From positions 62,001-112,545 of the forward strand of contig JYFJ02000726.1 in the NCBI GenBank assembly GCA_000934665.2: a stretch of DNA of 50,545 bases, in the 5' to 3' direction. The notes under the pieces were generated by a model. That model was not told the DNA's origin, did no database searches, and worked only from the letters and a program-made list of their open reading frames with translations. Below, in pieces: positions 34,090 through 48,078 of this stretch (the stretch's first letter is position 1; the number at the start of each line of letters is the position of its first letter). Made by a program: the position numbers and the translations under genes. This stretch comes from Catajapyx aquilonaris. Lineage: Eukaryota.

Positions 34090-35382
34090 TCACGTGTCAT
34101 CCCAATGGTTAACCATGTCTTCTTCCAACAAGGGGCTCCAGTTGGGAGACTGGCACTGCGTCGCTGGCCATCCAAAGTCGTCCACACACATCCACCTCTG
34201 GGTGGCCGTCTGCAGATCCAGTCCGCTGCTGGCGGCATCCTCCTCAATCTTGGGGTACCTCCATGTGTTAGGCGCAAATCGGATCCCAGTGCTGTTCTCC
34301 ATCACCGTTCGGCTGGTCACCGCCACGTACATGTCGCAGTTATGTGAAGAATGGATCCGTATCTGTAAATAGGTCGGATGTTACATGTGGTTCTCCCAGC
34401 GCACTGTGCCTCCTACAATATCCAACACCTACTCCTTCATTATGAGCAGGAAGTACAGCAGCCAGACCATCATTTAAATAAGTGGTCATCACCGCAAATA
34501 GATTACAAGGCAAGGCGCCGGCAAGTTTCCTTACACAATTAAGTCAATCTTTGTAATCTGCCGCACTGCACGCTCGTATTTGGCCAAAATTTAACAACTA
34601 AAATCGCATGACTTCTGTTAACGTACCTGGTGTGCAGCAATGGACATGGTGCAACCGCTACACGCCTCCACCATGATGGATGAGGCGACTGGCCCGCACA
34701 GAATGTGGCAATCGACCAGGCTCACGGCTTGAACGGCAGCGGGAACACCTTCCATCACCACCGTGCATCCGACCAGCTCGTGCAGCAGTACGTCTTGGCC
34801 CATTAGCTCCTTCCTGGACAGCCTGACCGTCTCCCCCTTACGGGCCCTTACCATCACCGACGCTTCAAGTGAATTATCCGGCTTCTCTCCATCAGGAAGC
34901 TGCTCTAACACCGCTGAATCCTTGCTTATCTGTTTCTGTTCCTCTGCCTGTATCTCTCTAAGTGGCTTTGACAATGCTCGTGAACGGAATCCAAATCGCT
35001 TCTTAGGTCGTACCCTGGCTTCGGTCGAGTCTCGAATCCGTTGCAGTTGTGCTAAGGTCTCCTGTGAGCGTCGTAAGTCATATGCGGGCAGGAAATGGGA
35101 AGCATCCAACAACGCCTTCTGCATTCGCTGTAAAATCGTGCAAGCCTCGTCCACCTCCACTCCGGACTGTGCCTTCTCAAGTCGTGACTCAACATCCTTG
35201 CGTAGGTCATTGAAACGGGCGTAAAACTGTGCTGGTGTCTCCTCCAGCTGGTCCATGGTTGGCATCTTCTGCTTGGTCAGGAGCCTGTGGCGTTCCTCCA
35301 GGCGCCCTATCACATCTCGGTGGCGGTCAGTGGGGGTGAAGGGTCCACCACCCACAATGCCATTCTCCTCCATCACTTTCAT
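34090..35382 (-). CDS. TBCC: Tubulin-specific chaperone C; exons 35382-34627 and 34362-34090
   Basis: DASHFLPAYDLRRSQ, VRPKKRFGFR, C-CAP/cofactor C domain LCGPVASSIMVEACSGC..AHQ-IRIH..RFAP..VDDFGW..SPNW. Confidence 0.93.
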
Positions 35383-35966
35383 GGCTTAAGTTTTCCCTCA
35401 GCCACCCACACCGTCAAGTCTTGATCACGGGCTTTGTAGTTGCTGTCTGCAAATTCACCAACCTTGTAGAAACCTGCGGAGAATATGAGGAGTTAATCAC
35501 AAGAGCCTTGGTTATTATCATTAGACGATTAATTAGTAGGGTACGGCATTATAAAACACAAATTTCTCACAGTCACATGCTTTCCTTTCACATTAAAGAT
35601 ACTCTTCCAAGCACATGTCTTGCCAGACTGTTATTGCTAAAATTAGCCGGACAGTCACATCACATTTTTTGAACAGCTGCCAGTTTTCCCGTGGCAGTTT
35701 ACTTGCGGTGATTCAACTATTTGAATTCTACACCTTTCCAACTAGAAACTTCAATATTATCGGATCATTACAAGGTTCCAAATGAAAGGTTTTAACTGAC
35801 CGTCCAACACCCAGTTGTAGTTGTTGTGCATGTACAACCTAAAGTCTCGAGATCTGTTCATACGATGCCAGAGACAAAAGGTGGCAAGGAAGGCACCAGC
35901 CTCAATCGCCAGGATGCCTTTGATTGAAGAGCGAAGTAAACGACGCTTCGGCTCCTTATGAAGCAT
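35379..35966 (-). CDS. CEBPZOS: CEBPZOS-like small membrane/mitochondrial protein, 86 aa; exons 35966-35801 and 35473-35379
   Basis: IKGILAIEAGAFLATFCLWHRMNRSRDFRLYMHNNYNWVLDG-FYKVGE...RDQDLTVW matches recalled CEBPZOS (FKGVLVAE..KMHTSQDFR..ILEVYYK..RELDQKTW). Phase-1 GT-AG intron. Its TGA overlaps the TBCC ATG. Confidence 0.85.
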
Positions 35967-39166: not shown

Positions 39167-42100
39167 TCAAGCAACAACCAATTTTTTACCATTGCTGCAA
39201 TGCAAGGAACCGCCGGTAGTGGAGGATGCGGCCCCACCTTTGCGAAACTGTTCAGATGGACCCCAAACACGTACGGTCCCATCATCTGACACGGAGGCCA
39301 GCATCTGGGGAAATGTGGGGTTCCACGTCACACAGTTCACGGTGCGGCTGTGGCCCGCAAGTGTGGCGATTGGGTGCTCCCGTCTCACGTGCCAGATGTA
39401 CACCTTGTTGTCTGCAGGCAAGAGGGTTTCAGGATTCACTACTACGAGGCAGAGGCGTTGTACGTGCCAAATTCCCATTACAGCTACTCATGCAACTTCC
39501 ACCGTAACATGCACACTAGGTGCAACTACATGGAAAATATTCTTAGGCCGGATTACACTGGCTCCCGGAAAATTTGACTGGCTGAAGAAGAGCCCGGTTA
39601 GTTTGTTATTCATTGTTGTTCACAATTCGGTCAACAATGGATAACAAACCATCTCGGCTCTTCTTCGGCCAGACAAATTTTCCGGGAGCCGGTGCAATCC
39701 GGCCTTAGCCTGGAATAAGTCCAGAGCCATAGAGTCAATAGTGCAGTCTTTAAGCCGCGTTTACACACGAGCCATTAGTTCAGCGATGAATCAAATCGAT
39801 TGTTAGCATGATTGTTACTTTCACCCCAAACAACTGGATTCATCGCTCGGCAAATTGCTCACATGTAAAGGCGGCTTTCCATCTTCCCAGATGTCAAACA
39901 CAAAACACATGCTAATACTACAGATCTGCCCTTGTTTGGATACTGGCAGGAATAATGACAGAATAAGCACCTTCGCTGCCACTGGCGACAAAGTCCTGGT
40001 TCACACCTCCAAAGCAGCTATGAATGGTGTAGAAGCCCTGGGTAACGCCCTGGAACTTGCGCACCAGGCAGCGGTCACGTAAGTCCCACAGGTGGACCCC
40101 TTGAGTGGCAACGTTCAAGAGGGCTAGGCGGTCAGCATCATTCACAGTAAATGACATTATGGCATGGCCCTCCTGCAATCTGAAGTCCACGGACAAAAAA
40201 AAGCTATTGTTATTCACATGTAAAAGTAATACCAACAAAATTATCAGGACAAGTCAGTACTACGGCTGCATAGCAAGAATTCAGGTGTGAAATTAATAAT
40301 TGAAGTTCCATGCATGCTCCAATTGTCTCGAAAGAGCCCTGTCCTTGTGTGCTCTCAGAAGTCTAAGTACTTATTTTACTGCAATTTAAACGAAATGGTA
40401 CTGCTTCCTTCCAATATTGTAACTCACATATTGGCATCTGTAAGCTCCTCAAAGTTGTATGAGCGTATCCGGTGGTGAGTATCTGCTGCAAGAACGGTCT
40501 TCCCATCAGCACGGTACCACAGGCACTGCACACGTACGCCTTCCCAAGAATCAAGCACGTTACCCTCCAGGTCCTGAAACAAACATTTTTGAAGTTCAAA
40601 TCTGCATTTATTTGAAATGTACGCTTGGTGACTAGGGAAGTTACTTACACATTGGTAAAACTGTCCCCTGGTACCTCCTGCCACAAATTTCTTCCCATCC
40701 CTGTGCCATGCACAGCAGGTCAGGGAGTCCTCTGGGGATGGGGAGATCTTGTTCCTTAGTTCCCCAGTCTGTGCATTCCACAGCCACAGTTCTGGGCAGT
40801 CATCAGGGCCGCACGCTATCAGGTGGCTCGAGTCAGGGCTCCAGGCAAGGTAAGCCACGCCGTAGTTGTGACCCTCCAAAGTGCGACGATGGTTGCAGGT
40901 CAAGGTCTCCTGCAGGGAAAGAAACAATAACATCTAAATCTCTCCACATTTCAACATAAGATTTTCTGCAGCATGATGTACCATAATTGACTGCATATAA
41001 GACACACCCCCATTTCAGCAGATCATATTTAGGAGGAAAAGGCATTTAGTGTAGTACATACGTATACAAGATGCAGGGCGATTTTTTGAGCAATTTTTGG
41101 GGAAAATTGTGTTTTATATGCCATCAAATGCAGTACCTGGACAAAATAAGAGTTTGACATTTTCAATCATGACGACAACATATCGATGTTGACACCTGAA
41201 AAATGCAGAACTTACAGGATCGACATCCCATATGACAATGGTGGTGTCTTTCGATCCAGTTGCAAGCTTCATCCCATCCGGTGAGAAGCGGCAGAACCAC
41301 ACTTCATCGCAATGTTCTTTCAGGACTTGCACTGTTTCACTGGGGAACTGCTCTCTGAAATGATGCAAGCGGGTGTAATGAATGAATTCTTTGGCGCAAA
41401 AACCAATCTTAACTCTTTACCTGTTGCAGACGTGGTCCACCAGAAGAGAGACATCAAGCCCACCGTCAGATTTGGTATTGTGATATGGACACCTCTTCTT
41501 TTGTAGCTCAACAGCCTGACACAACAATGAGTGTAACCTGCAACAGTTAAGGAAAAGGTTAAACATCAAATCTCTCATACCAGTGTGAATATCTTAACTC
41601 TGTCTTCAACAGTTCTTCGCAACTATGCAGCATCTACTCATTTCTAATCACGGGACAATTCATCTGAGAAATACCAGCTTTATTGATCCACTGGTGCCTC
41701 GTACTTATTTCGTTTCTGGAGGTTGTTTGGAAGAGCAAATGTTAAAACTATAATTAGGAGACATGAACACTTCATACAGGTGAAGCTTCATGTGCAAATT
41801 GCATTGATCAGTTATTTTTCAAAATTTCAACCACCCTAAATCTGTTTTAGAGGCCATCAATTTTTACACAAATCATTGCTGCATTGAATGACCGGGTCTG
41901 TCATCTTAAGAGTATCTATATTATTTTGAATTGGAACACACACAGAGAACCTTCTGGGTGGCAACATGATGGAAGGGGGTAGGAATTCTTGAAGCTTCTC
42001 CATCAGATGGACCCTGGAAGCAGATCCCTTTCCCTCCCATCCTGTCAGCCGACAGAGCTCTTCTTGTCCACTACACATCATGAAGCTGCAGAAAGAGAGC

Positions 42101-45100
42101 AAGGATTAATAAGAACCCTTCACAATCAAAATGTATAAAGCATTTTACCTGCTGAGCTCATGGACCCGTGCAGTGTTGTGCTTGAGTGGAGTTAGCTCAA
42201 AGCGAAGAACATGAAGAGCGTCCAGAACACGACCCTCCTCCAGGGACTCCAGGTACTTTTGTTCCAGCAAGTGAAACTTCATTTCCTGTCGAGGGCATAA
42301 AATTAATCAAAAAGGTACTGTACTTTACAATAAGATCAACTCACCATTAGATTCTGAGGGCTGTCAAGAAGTGAGCTTAGCTCTGTCAAGTCACTCTCAG
42401 CCTGAAATAATTAGCAGTAATCATCACATTATGTCACCAGCTTCTTTCTTAAATGATTTACCTTGCTCCAGTCTCCCTCCATTACATGCTGGCGGAACTT
42501 GGCAGCCACTGGATGATCTAGCCTGCACCCAGACTCTTGCATAAGCAGATCGGCAGTTCGACTAAAGTGAAAAATGTAATGATTTCAAAATCAATTGGAC
42601 TACCAATGTCAAGTTAGGTGTGGGCACAACAATTCAATTCTGACAGAGAAACACAAAAGTATCGTGATAAATTATTAAAATTTTAGCATCCAAAACATCT
42701 TATATTGTGTGAATGTCAACTATCCACTCTATACCAAAATGCATTCCTCACAGATACCTCTGAGAAAATGAAGTTAAACGAGAATATGTGGCACGTACTT
42801 GAGTCCAATGCTCTTGAGGTGCTGACCGATGAGTCTGACAAGCTCTTGGTTGGTCTTGTCAATAGGCTTGGGACGGATGACCTCCCCGTTGAGCTCAGAC
42901 GTTGAAGCTGAATCCCCAGCACCCAGCCCATTTGCTGCATGCTGCCTCTGCTGCACTCCATCTTCCTCTTCCTCTCCTATCGCACACCCTGACGCTCCAT
43001 TGTGCTGAGAACAACCATTTCTCACCATCTGGAAATTCAGTCACCTGCTGTTAGTTTTCAGAAGCATAAAATTGTGCCTGTAAGGTCATACAATTTTAGA
43101 CAATAACTTATTAGTGAATTATTGAATGGTTTCTCATACAAGGCTGATAAAATGTGATCCACGTAGTAATGGTGTGGATCAGTTGGAACAAGTTGTAGCC
43201 AACAAATACTCCACATTTCATTATGAAATACCCTGTCAATGACAATAGCGCGCTTACACCACAGGATTGAACATTAATCATGGCATGCATTATACAGGGT
43301 GTTTCAACTTTTTTGTCCGAACAGTTATCGGAAATATTGCACTATAAGCTACTACTTTGTAAGCAGTGACTTGCAACCGGTTTGTCGGAGGAATGGGAAA
43401 TATTCCCTACGAATCTTAGGTTGAAGTCGCATACACTGCTCACAAAGTAGCAGCTTAATGCAATATTTCCAATAACTGTTCGGACAATAAAGTTTAAACA
43501 CCCTGTATTATCTCATTTGAATATCAGAGCCTTTCAAGGAATGAACTCTGTGGCACTTCACAGCTCTATTCAATGTCTACCTGGCATAATAAAAGAATGA
43601 CACGGACATCACAATACATTCTGAGAAACAAAAGGTGATTCATACTCCCTAAGTGCGATCACCTTGAAGAATGTGCAATATGAGGATAATTGAGAGTGCT
43701 CGGAATTGTTACTATTGCCCGTTAAATATCCTTGAAGTAGCAATCAAGATAACGTGACATTTTGCCTGGCACACTTCAGACAAGGCTTTATTCTAGTGCT
43801 TTCCATACCCTGGCTCCTACTTAAGAAAAAGAGATCCGAGTAATAAGGACACAAGTCAGGCAAACACTATTGGTCTATGCACATTGCACATCCCATCCCC
43901 AATAATAATTTACGCTGACATTCATTACTCTCGGTGAACCATTGGCACCACTTTGGGCAACACAGTGGCATCCATGCTCACCAACAGATGGAAGAAACCT
44001 GATGCGTCATATCTTATATTGCCATACGACTTGCAGTTGTGCAAATTCTTCACTACAAACTTTGGCACAGCATTTGCAGCAATGTCTGCTGACATAAACA
44101 TGCTTTAAACTGTTTAAAGGATCCATACGTTTTGATAAGAATAGCTGCACCTGCTCTACAACCATTAGCACAGCATTCCATGTGTTGGTTTTCAATTACA
44201 ATCATTACACAATCAGCAAGAAGTAGAGGTCATAGTCTAATGCAGAGTAAGGAACTGCAATAATTGTAAAGTGACACTCCAACACTAACTATGACTGTAC
44301 AATTTTCAGGTATCCTGTAACACAACACTGCACTGAGAATGTTACCAGTGATGCCCTCATTAATGATACAACCACCATGCTCTTGCTCCATAGTAATTAT
44401 TGGAGATAGAAAGACAAGGGTACCCAGGTAGGTACCACGTACCTGGACCCTAATTACATGAATATCATTCCTAACACAAGCAATCACATGATTGTTTGGT
44501 TCTACCAAAACAATGCAGGCCAGTCAAGAGGGCAAAAACATGAATCAATATCATGACCATCAACTGGCAATTAATGAAGCAGTCCATGCTTATGAGGTAA
44601 CAATTTCAATTAACATGTTGCAAATGAGAGCTTGCATTCCAAACCAAATGCAAACGGTTTTTTTCTCCACGACACAACACTGTGCTATGAGTGGCTACAA
44701 GAGGCCAATTTTAGCTGTCACCTGCAGTGACCATTAGTCCCTCGCTTATAGTCATGTTTGTACCGGATCAACAATTATTTTTCAAGGGCACAGAGTATGA
44801 CTTCTGCAATACGGTAATGGCCATAATTTTGTCCCGAGTTGTTTGTGTTTGAAGGGCTGGGGTGACTTAAAAATACATTTGCACCTGTTCGTCTGATTTC
44901 AGCACTGCCTGTGAAAATAACCTGCTAAACCTGTACAGTTTCTCATTGTCACATGAGATTTGAACTCAGCTAAACATGAGCCCATCACTCAATGGTAATT
45001 ATCCTGATATACTTGCCATAGTGGAAATTGTTTGTCACAGTGTTTTCCAAGCAAATAGCTGGGATATTGTCTAAAATAAATGACAGACTCCAGCTTCCCG

Positions 45101-47329
45101 AAATACAATACTCAAGAACAGCAGAATTCTATCATCATCATTGTTCTAGTCATTGTTTAGATTATGACAAAATAAGGCAACAAGCATGTGTTTTCTTTCA
45201 TGCAACTTGTTATGTTTGGGACGTGAGGTTGGGAGGATGTCCAAAATATACATAGGCAGTTGAGCAGGTGAGTCAGCAAAAACCATATCCTTTCTTCATG
45301 CTGACAATAGAAGTATTTTGCTTTCTAGTGGTTATTGGCGATTAATATAAGATGCATTTGCTTATAAGGACAGAGGTTGTAACAGTTCAATCCGGTCAAC
45401 TATTTCACTCAATATCTGCTTTTTAAAAAGGTTCCTTCGTTGATGCAATATTTCCTGCACAAAAAACACAGTGATATGTAAAATTTGTGGTTGGCAAAAT
45501 GGTGGCCATAGAATTTATTTACTAATTTCAGTAATTTTTAATAATATTTAGTCAGGTTAATATTAGTCAATGTAGAAATATTTTGCTTCATTTCGTAATT
45601 TACTTTCCTTTTTTATTGCATGAAATTTCTTCTAGAGTACCGGTATAGCTAGACACACATCCTCCAATTCTCATTATTTTGCAACGTAGTGCATATAGCA
45701 TAATTTCTGTCATCCTAAATAAATTACCATTTTGCCAAATATGCGTTGTTGAAAAAACCTAAGATATAGTTTTTGATGCTATTGAAGTCCAATTTAATCA
45801 CATTCTATATTCGCACGGTGCTGCTGCTTATAAGTAAACAACACGGAGTAGAACAAAGAAGCAAAAATAATGTGCAAGGTCAGATTAACAAAAAAAAAAA
45901 AACAATCTAGTGAATTGTTTAATGTGGCCAAGCTCATGAATAACTAATTGCACATATCCTCAGGGACAGGATCACAGCTGCTCTTGAAATCCTAGTCAAT
46001 TTTTCTACTCCCTTGACACTCTAACTAGGTCTAACTTTTGATATAAAAATATATTCATGAGTTTTCAATAAATATGATCATCTTGGATGCAAAACATTGG
46101 CTCATATTAAAGGATGTCTAATTTCAACACCTGCTTATGAAATGGTGTCATCTGCAGATCAGCAGCTGTTGGTAAACTTCCTTAATAAAAGGACATGCAC
46201 TTCCTTTACAACCAGCAATGCCAACCAGCGAAAGTTATAGTCTTGCACGTATATGATCTATAAGTCATACTCCATCAATAATAGAGTATCTATTCCTTTC
46301 TGTCACATCCCACGCATGGAGATTAAATAGTAACGTGGCATCACCGGCCAAGTTTTTCAAAGCCTAACATAAAACTACCATTTTGCTTCCATTTAATTTG
46401 GACCCTAACTGATGTCAGCATAGAAAGTAGCTGTACCTGTGAAGCAGACTTGGTATCCAGCTTAGAAGAAATGTAATTGAAACAAGACAATAAGCTCACC
46501 TAACCTTGGCCTTTCTTCTGAACTATTACTTTGCAAACATCACTGACCTGTGAATAGTAAATACTGAGGGATCAAGGCCACTCAGTGACACAGGGAAAGA
46601 TGCAAACACCTGACTGTGGGGTTATTATGTGATGACTTGACTTGCTCTAATCCAGCAGTCTTCAGCCTATGTACCAGAAGCCTATCTGAAGAGTTCTAGA
46701 ACAGTACATGGGGAAATGGCTGATCTGATTAATCAGATGTCCATTTTAATCATTTACAACTGATAGTTTTTTTCTGGCCCATTATTATTACGCCCGAGAC
46801 GCAGAAACTGAAGTGGGCCACCTGCTCGCGAGAACAGGTGTTTTTGAGCAAATTCGAGCCATTTCAAGCACGCATGAGAAGTCAACGAATGAATGTTGCT
46901 GGAGAATACTGTCAGTGTTCTAGCAAAGTTATCGAAAGCGTCCAGTGGCTGTAACATTGACGACAGCTGCTCTAATCTGATTAAGGCCCATTTACACGAT
47001 GACGGTCGTGACGGAAGTAGGAACAGGCAGCTCCCTGCTGCTACTTTCTTGCAGAGAACGATGACGTTAGGACCGTCATCGTGCAACACTTGCTGCGACG
47101 CCCTCCCTGTATGAAAAATGTAATGGGGACGTACCGCATTCTGCGAGTGCGACGTGGCAGTGATGGCAGTGACGACCGAGGCGGTGTTATTGGCCCCCCC
47201 TCCGCCCCCCCCTCCTGGCGACGCACCCCCTCCAGGTGAAGCCAGACCTGGAGCGGTGGGCTGTTGCTGCTGAGACGCAGTGCTGCTTCCACCCGACTGC
47301 TGCCCTTGCCCTTGCTGTGGCTGGGGCAT
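39167..47329 (-). CDS. WDR26: WD repeat-containing protein 26 (CTLH/GID complex subunit), about 12 exons; AUG-initiated form
   Basis: LisH/CTLH ([26 protein letters not shown]), [53 protein letters not shown] and [14 protein letters not shown]. Exon 1 (47329-47135) joins 43028 in phase 0. Confidence 0.96.
39546..39704. mobile_element. Tourist-type MITE in the last WDR26 intron
   Basis: ~50-bp TIRs ggccggattacactggctcccggaaaatttg.ctggc.gaagaagagcc with a TTA TSD at 39543-39545 and 39705-39707. Confidence 0.85.
39753..39876. mobile_element. Tourist-type MITE related to 29797-29928
   Basis: TIRs agccgcgtttacacacgagc / gctcacatgtaaaggcggct, with tta/ttc flanks. Confidence 0.7.
43295..43505. mobile_element. 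Tc1/mariner-type MITE
   Basis: Long TIRs cagggtgtttcaactttt.tgtccgaacagttat.ggaaatattgca with a TA TSD. Confidence 0.85.
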
Positions 47330-47914
47330 GGTTCCTCTCAGTGGTGGCGGGGACGGGGGGACAGAGGGGGCTGCTGCGCTGCTACTGCTTCTGCTGGTGC
47401 TGCTGCTACTAGTACCGGCTGCGGCGGCGTTGGCAGTGCTTCCACGGCTGCTGCTACTCCCTCCCCTGGACGAAGCGCGGGCCTTCTTGCGCGGTGGCGG
47501 ATCAAGCCCACCGTCGTCCGACTCCCCACTGGAGGCCAGGCTTGCCACTAACTCGCCGTGGTTGGGAGTAGGGTGCGGTGCAGCGGACGGGCGGCGGCGA
47601 CACAGCAGGCCAGCGACACCGCCCGCAGCACCACAGGCCGCCACCAGTCACCACCCAAACCACTACTCTACCCAACCCTACACGACATTATACCTCTCCT
47701 AACAATACTAGGCCTAGGGCAGCCTCCAACAATATTTAAAAAAAAGCAGCCTAGGCTTCCTTCTGGATGATGCTTTGTTGCAATGTTGGGCTGCTGCACC
47801 TTCCCCTTTTCCTTTTTTCCTTCCTCCTGCTAGCTGCTGGCTGCTGGCCACCCCCCACAGGATTTGACCTCTCTTTTGCCCCCTCACTCCCTCAGCTGAC
47901 CGATGTTTTGGTGG

Positions 47915-48078
47915 TGACGTCACGGCCCCAGGATTTTGGACGAGTAGACTCGCCCACCTGCAGCTTCAAGGCCAGCTTCTCCCTGACTTAGCTTCAGAGC
48001 GAGTCTTCGATTGGAAGGGTGGGTGCGTTCGAAAGTGGGTGCGTGCGTCGCGCCCTCTGGTGACGTCACTCACGTCAC
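47915..48078. promoter_or_regulatory. WDR26 promoter region with CRE sites
   Basis: Perfect TGACGTCA at 47915-47922 and 48061-48068, plus a half-site cacgtca, upstream of the GC-rich exon 1. Confidence 0.5.

Follow-up and report, generated by a model that had tools for sequence, protein, structure and literature searches.

N-terminal extensions translated without an AUG codon are an established kind of feature, and one of them has been described for vertebrate WDR26, a Gid7-type subunit of the CTLH E3 ligase. Ivanov et al. (2011, NAR 39:4220; PMC3105428) reported an ACG- or CUG-initiated WDR26 extension in species from human to fish, named ACG as the human start, and cited a vendor's western blot with two bands for human WDR26. 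Among non-vertebrate metazoans, the part of that paper available to us lists an AUU-initiated extension in flies (Drosophila) alone, which was held to be independent of the vertebrate one. One human peptide, with 4 peptide-spectrum matches, is attributed to the WDR26 5′ leader (PMC5834625), and the accessible text of a later survey places WDR26 among the genes still without an annotated near-cognate-initiated proteoform or an intact extension. Here, we describe the 5′ leader of the WDR26 orthologue encoded on the minus strand of a 50,545-nucleotide stretch of the Catajapyx aquilonaris genome (GenBank assembly GCA_000934665.2, contig JYFJ02000726.1, positions 62,001 to 112,545; hereafter, the window). 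This leader is probably translated in the WDR26 frame from a CUG codon at positions 47539-47537, which would add to the protein a conserved motif that resembles a nuclear localization signal (NLS).

Arthropod and vertebrate extensions of WDR26

The WDR26 frame of the window is closed upstream by a TGA codon at 47648..47650 (this and all other features of the gene are on the minus strand). Between this stop and the first in-frame ATG at 47327..47329, which would be the start of choice in a conventional annotation (MPQPQQ...), lies an open leader of 106 sense codons (47330..47647) with zero in-frame ATG codons. The same frame had been delineated in an earlier reading of the window, made without database searches (the original prediction), according to which an ancient non-AUG isoform adds an NLS-like motif to WDR26; all its coordinates hold. 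ATG 47329 has its apparent counterpart in the MQQ... Met of relatives (e.g., MQQPQQPQQQ in L010, one of the related loci discussed below). The leader encodes ...HGELVASLASSGESDDGGLDPPPRKKARASS... and includes a conserved core, SLASSGESDDGGLDPPPRKKAR (47477..47542), delimited by searches and alignments, in which an acidic Ser-rich patch is followed by GG, PPP, and a basic K-K-x-R element. A low-complexity Ser/Ala/Gly/Pro spacer of 49 codons (47330..47476) separates the motif from the first ATG. The proposed CUG start (47537..47539) sits in gcaagcCTGgcc, with the context gcaAGCCTGgcc, that is, A at -3 and G at +4; its context is as strong as predicted, and the CTG 47647 and GTG 47644 codons mentioned in the same prediction are found right after the in-frame TGA. 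A Pfam search of the leader returned 0 families.

The whole leader proved to be a query swamped by low complexity (2 hits among 7999 scored), and the core was used as the query instead. These core-only searches located SLASSGESDDGGL[AV]PPPRKK ahead of the Met in WDR26 proteins of insects, namely, those of Ephemera danica, Coptotermes formosanus (whose model is incomplete and begins within the leader), Homalodisca vitripennis, and Trichogramma brassicae (a fusion model), as well as in several unnamed open reading frames (ORFs). WDR26 of insects, crustaceans, and fish likewise has, ahead of the start Met, the core of the window itself, SLASSGESDDGGL-DPPPRKKAR (47542-47477). Beyond the insects, the motif has three named carriers, an amphipod (Trinorchestia longiramus), a shrimp (Penaeus indicus), and a fish (Aldrovandia affinis); the named models with the motif ahead of the start Met belong to five insects (with the Trichogramma fusion model among them), two crustaceans, and one fish. 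A profile search against 1.84 billion representatives gave 178 matches at E values of ≤1e-3; the motif stands upstream of the Met in 49 of the 150 representatives listed, and in most of the others, the sequence opens with the Met itself, no earlier than profile position 57. Altogether, 77 of the 192 collected proteins carry it, with redundant members of clusters counted in, as well as the translation of the window itself. Organism names were found for 4 of the 30 clusters, and statements about phyla are confined to arthropods and vertebrates. The features constant among the carriers are [ST]-L-A-S, a Ser/Asp/Glu patch, GG, two or three Pro residues, and K-[KR]-x-[KR]; both crustaceans have the variant TLASW[EQ]DP.YGGVSPPPRKK. 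In tblastn searches with the insect proteins, positions 47584-47483 of the window were matched at 71-85% identity.

Database models that contain the motif (P0015, P0195, P0003, P0013, P0080, and P0086) reach it through upstream Met starts or through fusions. In the Trichogramma brassicae model, ankyrin repeats are fused to the WDR26 leader, and the Penaeus indicus model (“uncharacterized protein”) seems to run past the exon end after the LisH domain. Some of these motif-bearing models may represent real gains of an AUG, and others may be gene-model artifacts.

The fish sequences were picked up by the arthropod profile. P0086 (Aldrovandia affinis) and five unnamed vertebrate-like proteins (P0088, P0091, P0098, P0101, and P0147) contain TLASASSSSDSDTGGASPPPRKK[HRS]RAS or a similar sequence, followed downstream by an MQ[AS]NG Met; the vertebrate segment mentioned in the original prediction is therefore real. 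In an hhalign comparison of extension-only alignments, the arthropod alignment A1 matched the vertebrate alignment A4 with a probability of 97.1% (E value of 6.6e-11, 29 columns, 62% identity), and in BLASTP, the window leader matched P0086 with 12 of 18 residues identical (E value of 2e-4). These comparisons show that the extension in the window is a homologue of the vertebrate WDR26 extension and, together with its presence in insects, crustaceans, and a fish, agree with the great age proposed for it. The two share the gene, the location upstream of an MQ..NG Met, and the lack of an in-frame AUG, as described for vertebrates in PMC3105428, as well as a homologous core consisting of [ST]LAS, a Ser/Asp-rich patch, GG, and PPPRKKxR. 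They differ in the spacer between the motif and the Met (30-54 residues in vertebrate-like sequences, 49 in the window, and 5-7 in insects), in the Ser run, which is three residues longer in vertebrates, and in an extra basic cluster, KKKKR, located just before the LisH domain in 8 of 70 sequences, all of them vertebrate-like, and absent from arthropods. The vertebrate ACG and CUG starts can plausibly be located at the T-L of TLAS.

The Drosophila extension of PMC3105428 is likewise a non-AUG extension of an arthropod WDR26. However, it is described there as independent, whereas the vertebrate motif is present both in the window and at the insect-like loci; the comparison made here did not include any named dipteran. 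Because the motif is shared, common descent is favored over independent origin, at least for these arthropods. Three aspects appear to be new: that arthropods carry a homologue of the vertebrate extension, contrary to the independent-origin view in the consulted part of PMC3105428; that the 5′ edge of the extension is a base-invariant CUG in an optimal context in the arthropod-type DNA lineages available; and that the arthropod extension holds the sole match of WDR26 to the monopartite NLS consensus. The vertebrate case itself was already known in 2011. The WDR26/CG7611 literature that we found, in a search that left many subscription journals outside, does not treat the homology of the arthropod and vertebrate extensions.

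The proposed start codon and the transcribed leader

A scan of metagenome contigs yielded 10 related loci: L001 to L007, which are near-identical and termite-like; the mayfly-like L008; the leafhopper-like L009; and L010, whose affinity is unassigned. The window, L001, L008, L009, and L010 were compared as five DNA lineages. At each of the 10 loci, as in the window, an upstream in-frame stop is followed by an ATG-free frame that includes the motif and then by the Met, an arrangement in keeping with the predicted non-AUG initiation. From the stop to the Met, the loci have 44-78 ATG-free codons, with only 5-7 codons between the motif and the Met in the insect-like ones. The leaders of relatives were also checked for stops and frameshifts, and none were found. 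L009 contains an intronless ORF of 632 codons up to its stop; its own leader has an in-frame TAA, and all three frames lack an ATG ahead of the Met. L009 looks like an mRNA or a copy of one.

The proposed start codon and its surroundings, AGC-CTG-GCC (A at -3 and G at +4), have 0 variable sites in all five DNA lineages. Ser and Leu are each encoded by six codons and Ala by four, and among the 18 other invariant-residue columns of at least 4-fold degeneracy in the motif and in the LisH region, which served as a control, only one (CCA) has an invariant codon. CTG 47539 is the sole near-cognate codon common to all five lineages, has the best context among the in-frame near-cognate codons of the window leader, and in L009 is the only such codon upstream of the motif. 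The mode of substitution changes at this point. In the 19 codons after the CTG context, the five lineages have 1, 3, and 15 variable sites at codon positions 1, 2, and 3, respectively (chi-square P = 1.2e-4), compared with 2, 4, and 5 in the 6 codons before it, and all 10 pairwise comparisons display third-position bias downstream of the CTG only (in one example, 5/8/6 upstream versus 0/0/5 downstream). This pattern indicates purifying selection on the extension at the protein level and places a conserved near-cognate codon, in a good context, at the 5′ edge of the conservation. Because AGC-CTG-GCC is invariant, L009 has a single near-cognate codon, and the substitution pattern switches at the CTG, the start is placed at 47539, the codon that the original prediction had singled out, and we infer that this is the start used.

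Upstream of the CTG, the insect-like loci share perfectly identical blocks of bases, “aacaaaatttc” and “aaatttcatcacggcgac” (L001:2959-3030, L008:219-290, and L009:54-125), whose third codon positions have not drifted; in L009, the frame is interrupted by a 1-base indel within one of the blocks. The blocks look like conservation of a non-coding type, such as that of elements of the 5′ untranslated region (5′ UTR) or the promoter. In the termite-like and mayfly-like loci, an in-frame ATT is found upstream, where the substitution pattern is not coding-like. A special RNA hairpin near the CTG was considered as a further candidate feature and is unsupported: the RNAalifold consensus has a covariation term of -0.2 kcal/mol and compensatory changes in 1 of 19 pairs, and single-sequence folds of 68 bases in five sequences gave z values of +0.57, -0.57, -1.07, -0.81, and -0.48.

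Two sequencing runs, X1 and X2, were examined; neither is on record as RNA. X2 nevertheless seems to behave as RNA, judging from a 2675-base contig spliced at the exon 1 donor, whose match to the window stops at 47135, the next letters being those with which exon 2 starts at 43028; the intron side (46900-47134) has no cover in X2. This junction delimits the remainder of exon 1, which is Gln/Gly/Ser-rich (47135..47326), with a GT donor at 47134-47133. A second X2 contig, of 671 bases, is collinear with 47219-47893 (minus strand) across the in-frame TGA, with no joint reported. The leader, including the TGA, is therefore present in assembled transcripts, unspliced, at least up to 47893, and with this TGA inside the transcribed leader, no AUG further upstream can feed the WDR26 frame without splicing. 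Two possibilities raised along with the original prediction, a transcription start downstream of 47540 and an upstream exon spliced into the leader, were not borne out, as the transcript assembly extends well upstream, to 47893, and X2 reveals no splice inside the leader. The differences between X2 and the window (at 47682, 47736, and 47737) are all upstream of the TGA. X1 comes from another, related organism; its 452-base contig matches positions 47575-47477 alone, with 6 differences in 99 bases and dissimilar flanks, and the letters of the flank continue in the same frame without a stop.

The only ATG upstream of the leader frame in 48100-47330 (ATG 47688) opens a 6-codon out-of-frame upstream ORF (MSCRVG, stop TAG; 47668..47688), and the X2 contig is 3 bases short at 47682, within this ORF. 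Further upstream, not far from 47893, where the transcript contig has its 5′ end, there are two TGACGTCA palindromes (48061-48068 and 47915-47922), which we take to resemble CRE/ATF sites and which are possible promoter elements.

The basic element and alternative explanations

In the mechanism that we favor, the WDR26 leader would be translated from a near-cognate codon, with CUG 47539-47537, in its optimal Kozak context, as the likeliest one. The resulting long proteoform would exceed the AUG-initiated form by 70 codons and would begin with Met-ASSGESDDGGLDPPPRKKAR, that is, with the acidic Ser-rich patch, followed by GG-L-D-PPP and then by the basic K-K-x-R. Ribosomes that miss the CUG during scanning would initiate at AUG 47329 and produce the short form. 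K-K-x-R would serve as a nuclear signal in the long form and be absent from the short form, phosphorylation of the acidic Ser patch would perhaps tune this signal, and the choice of the start codon would set the share of nuclear WDR26.

The basic element of the window, KKAR, comprises leader residues 54-57 and conforms to K-(K/R)-X-(K/R), which we take to be the consensus of monopartite NLSs. K[KR]x[KR] is present in 75 of the 77 motif carriers, which makes “NLS-like” a fair description of the motif; the copy in the extension is the sole match in three full-length insect WDR26 proteins and across the WDR26 exons of the window, and the AUG-start model P0017 from Ischnura has zero matches. By its match to the consensus, the element is predicted to be a monopartite NLS. 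In addition, S-S-G-E-S-D-D stands 11-15 residues before K-K. In kinase-tuned NLSs, such as that of the SV40 large T antigen, a CK2 site (Ser with an acidic residue at +3) lies beside the NLS, some 10-15 residues upstream, and the acidic Ser patch resembles this arrangement. CUG-initiated proteoforms with dual localization are exemplified by the high-molecular-weight isoforms of FGF2, in which an upstream near-cognate start adds an N-terminal nuclear-targeting segment that the AUG form lacks. The likeness is limited to this design, as the gene and the sequence are unrelated and a localization effect in WDR26 is hypothetical.

In human WDR26, a different basic cluster (residues 111-121), identified by NLS prediction, was deleted in a delta-NLS mutant that served for interactome and rescue experiments (PMC7561725, in the part available). 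This element is the second vertebrate cluster, the one just before the LisH domain. In the solved WDR26 chains 8qbn, 8qe8, 9rsc, and 9rsd (645 residues), the N-terminal profile was matched only from the LisH domain on (positions 76-126), so the conserved extension is not in them. Prediction of a complex between the Coptotermes extension (P0009, residues 1-45) and the rest of the protein (residues 46-633) gave a score of 0.01 in a run without controls, a result that speaks neither for nor against such contact.

Several observations weigh against this interpretation. The open frame by itself is unremarkable: 2539 of 20000 mononucleotide shuffles of its 318 bases (12.7%; 70% G+C) contained no in-frame stop; it is in the conservation of the encoded motif and of the CTG among species that chance is exceeded. 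The stretch between CTG 47539 and ATG 47329 has no ATG in any frame, but 1.46 would be expected and the chance of zero is 0.23. The invariance statistics come from five DNA lineages, three of them insect-like, that is, from few and related samples, and the protein hits are ORF calls, among which lineages with a broken frame would escape notice (an ascertainment bias). The ungapped hhalign alignment sets the Leu of vertebrate TLAS three residues off the Leu of the arthropod CTG, so the start need not have the same position in the two phyla. Assembly contigs can neither fix the transcript start nor exclude minor isoforms, and translation in C. aquilonaris is deduced from sequence comparison rather than from ribosome profiling, peptides, or true 5′ ends. 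NLS function is a matter of consensus matching, and the cluster studied in human WDR26 is a different one. Finally, H-G-[DE] is repeatedly present in arthropods (in the window and the insect-like loci), 5-7 codons ahead of the CTG, and conservation in X1 extends 36 bases upstream of the CTG.

The last two observations are the reason to keep a small share of probability for initiation further upstream. The extension would then be translated from CTG 47608, CTG 47605, GTG 47644, CTG 47647, or several of these sites, with a product up to 106 codons longer than the AUG form; such in-frame codons do exist, the X1 sequence is conserved from 47575 and has a CTG a few codons further up in its still open flank, fish share LLTTAALGEE upstream of TLAS, an AUU start is given for Drosophila in PMC3105428, and the termite-like and mayfly-like loci have an in-frame ATT in common. 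We consider this unlikely, as the contexts of the upstream codons are weaker (T, C, G, or C at -3), none of them is common to the five lineages, L009 offers no near-cognate codon upstream of the motif besides the shared CTG, substitutions before the CTG are spread evenly over the codon positions, and the conserved upstream block with its indel in L009 does not maintain the frame. An equally improbable variant accepts translation and assigns the module a role other than that of an NLS, either as a pseudo-substrate of the basic-degron site of WDR26, in the manner of the YPEL5 N-terminus, or as a docking site for a partner. The available text of Gottemukkala et al. (2024; PMC7616709) describes binding of the human WDR26 propeller to a basic motif inside NMNAT1 that also serves as an NLS, and mimicry of this motif by the YPEL5 N-terminus. 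The parallel is a short basic NLS-like motif acting on WDR26-CTLH, but those motifs belong to other proteins, and binding of the WDR26 extension to its own propeller is hypothetical. Moreover, the conservation of GG, PPP, and the spacing is far stricter than a plain NLS requires. On the other hand, according to the same source, ubiquitylation was lost when a conventional NLS took the place of the NMNAT1 basic motif, so a generic K-K-x-R need not fit the site, and the pseudo-substrate role is suggested by analogy. The most far-reaching version, a bilaterian-wide CUG-started proteoform whose module would be both a phospho-switchable nuclear signal and a YPEL5-like pseudo-substrate in WDR26's own basic-degron pocket, is a speculation to which we assign a low probability.

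It is very unlikely that the leader is an untranslated conserved element, such as a 5′ UTR, promoter-proximal DNA, or RNA structure, with the open frame and the peptide-like conservation as by-products. This possibility would agree with a G+C-rich leader whose openness is not significant, with the perfect nucleotide blocks without third-position drift just upstream of the CTG, and with the indirect nature of the case for translation in C. aquilonaris. It does not readily account for the 1/3/15 distribution of variable sites downstream of the CTG while the residues stay invariant, nor for a motif that stays in frame with the Met, without stops, over spacers of 5 to ~54 codons in different phyla; fold energies in all five sequences are ordinary (z from -1.07 to +0.57) and the covariation term is negligible, and the human peptide reported in PMC5834625 comes from the homologous leader. 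Still more improbable is an alternative first exon, spliced into the leader, whose AUG would be the start of the long form in place of a non-AUG codon. Annotated models with a Met upstream of the motif exist in Ephemera, Homalodisca, Trinorchestia, Penaeus, and Aldrovandia, and in the window, a C-rich tract followed by AG is found just upstream of the motif. Against this, the collinear X2 contig (47219-47893) crosses the TGA with no joint reported, the leader of the mRNA-like, intronless L009 itself includes an in-frame stop but no ATG, and the stop and the motif are in the same exon at all 10 genomic loci. Initiation at CUG 47539-47537 thus remains the preferred explanation.

Gene context and implications

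The minus strand of the window encodes a complete WDR26 orthologue. Residues 1-581 of the 587-residue Ischnura elegans WDR26 (P0017) align in tblastn with positions 43034-39203 in 7 collinear segments at 47-84% identity, and the exon at 40909-40427 has human WDR26 (8qbn; E value of 1.7e-60) as its top match among solved structures, the second-best structure family being a generic WD40 protein (E value of 4e-39). The assignment of the gene to WDR26, made in the original prediction, is confirmed by these comparisons, with the LisH-CTLH part identified by collinearity. Pfam WD40 was matched by 2 exon ORFs, and Pfam searches of 6 pieces from single short exons returned 0 families, with no LisH or CTLH model among them. 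Exon 2, with the LisH region, occupies 42804..43028, as indicated by the spliced X2 contig and by collinearity with P0017, and the other exons, which encode the CTLH/CRA region and the WD40 propeller, fall within 39203..42566 on the evidence of tblastn with P0017, Pfam WD40, and human 8qbn. A protein search with exon 2 for close relatives gave a single match, to Ischnura at 51% identity, so for this region the collection searched covers neither the species nor the genus of the window. Mean tblastn identity over the gene is ~60% with insects, 37% with the amphipod, and 46% with a fish fragment, which suggests an arthropod-type WDR26 with insects as the nearest among the named comparators.

In the window, the motif exon and the LisH exon are separated by a 4.1-kb intron (47134-43029), unlike in L001 to L008 and L010, where the motif, the Met, and the LisH domain are all within one exon. 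Relative to the insect-like loci, the window also has large low-complexity insertions, namely, the Ser/Ala/Gly/Pro spacer before the ATG and the Gln/Gly/Ser-rich stretch after it. The neighboring gene at 34621-35385 (minus strand) encodes a homologue of tubulin-specific chaperone C (Pfam TBCC_N, E value of 7.8e-16; TBCC, E value of 2.8e-11).

As for annotation, arthropod models mostly begin WDR26 at the AUG (e.g., P0017) or invent upstream starts and fusions, whereby a conserved 70-codon stretch, predicted to be coding, is overlooked or garbled. If the human 5′ leader is coding as well, variants in it need to be read as coding changes, and if the extension does act as a built-in regulator of CTLH, the published extension-less WDR26 structures and assays that were checked miss a conserved control element. 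The shared motif and the CUG that is invariant in five arthropod-type DNA lineages point to a single origin before the split of arthropods and vertebrates, which, if true, would make this one of the older conserved non-AUG starts. In published work, the localization of the human WDR26 ligase matters (PMC7561725, in the part available); in arthropods, the choice between the CUG and the AUG could set the balance of nuclear and cytoplasmic WDR26.

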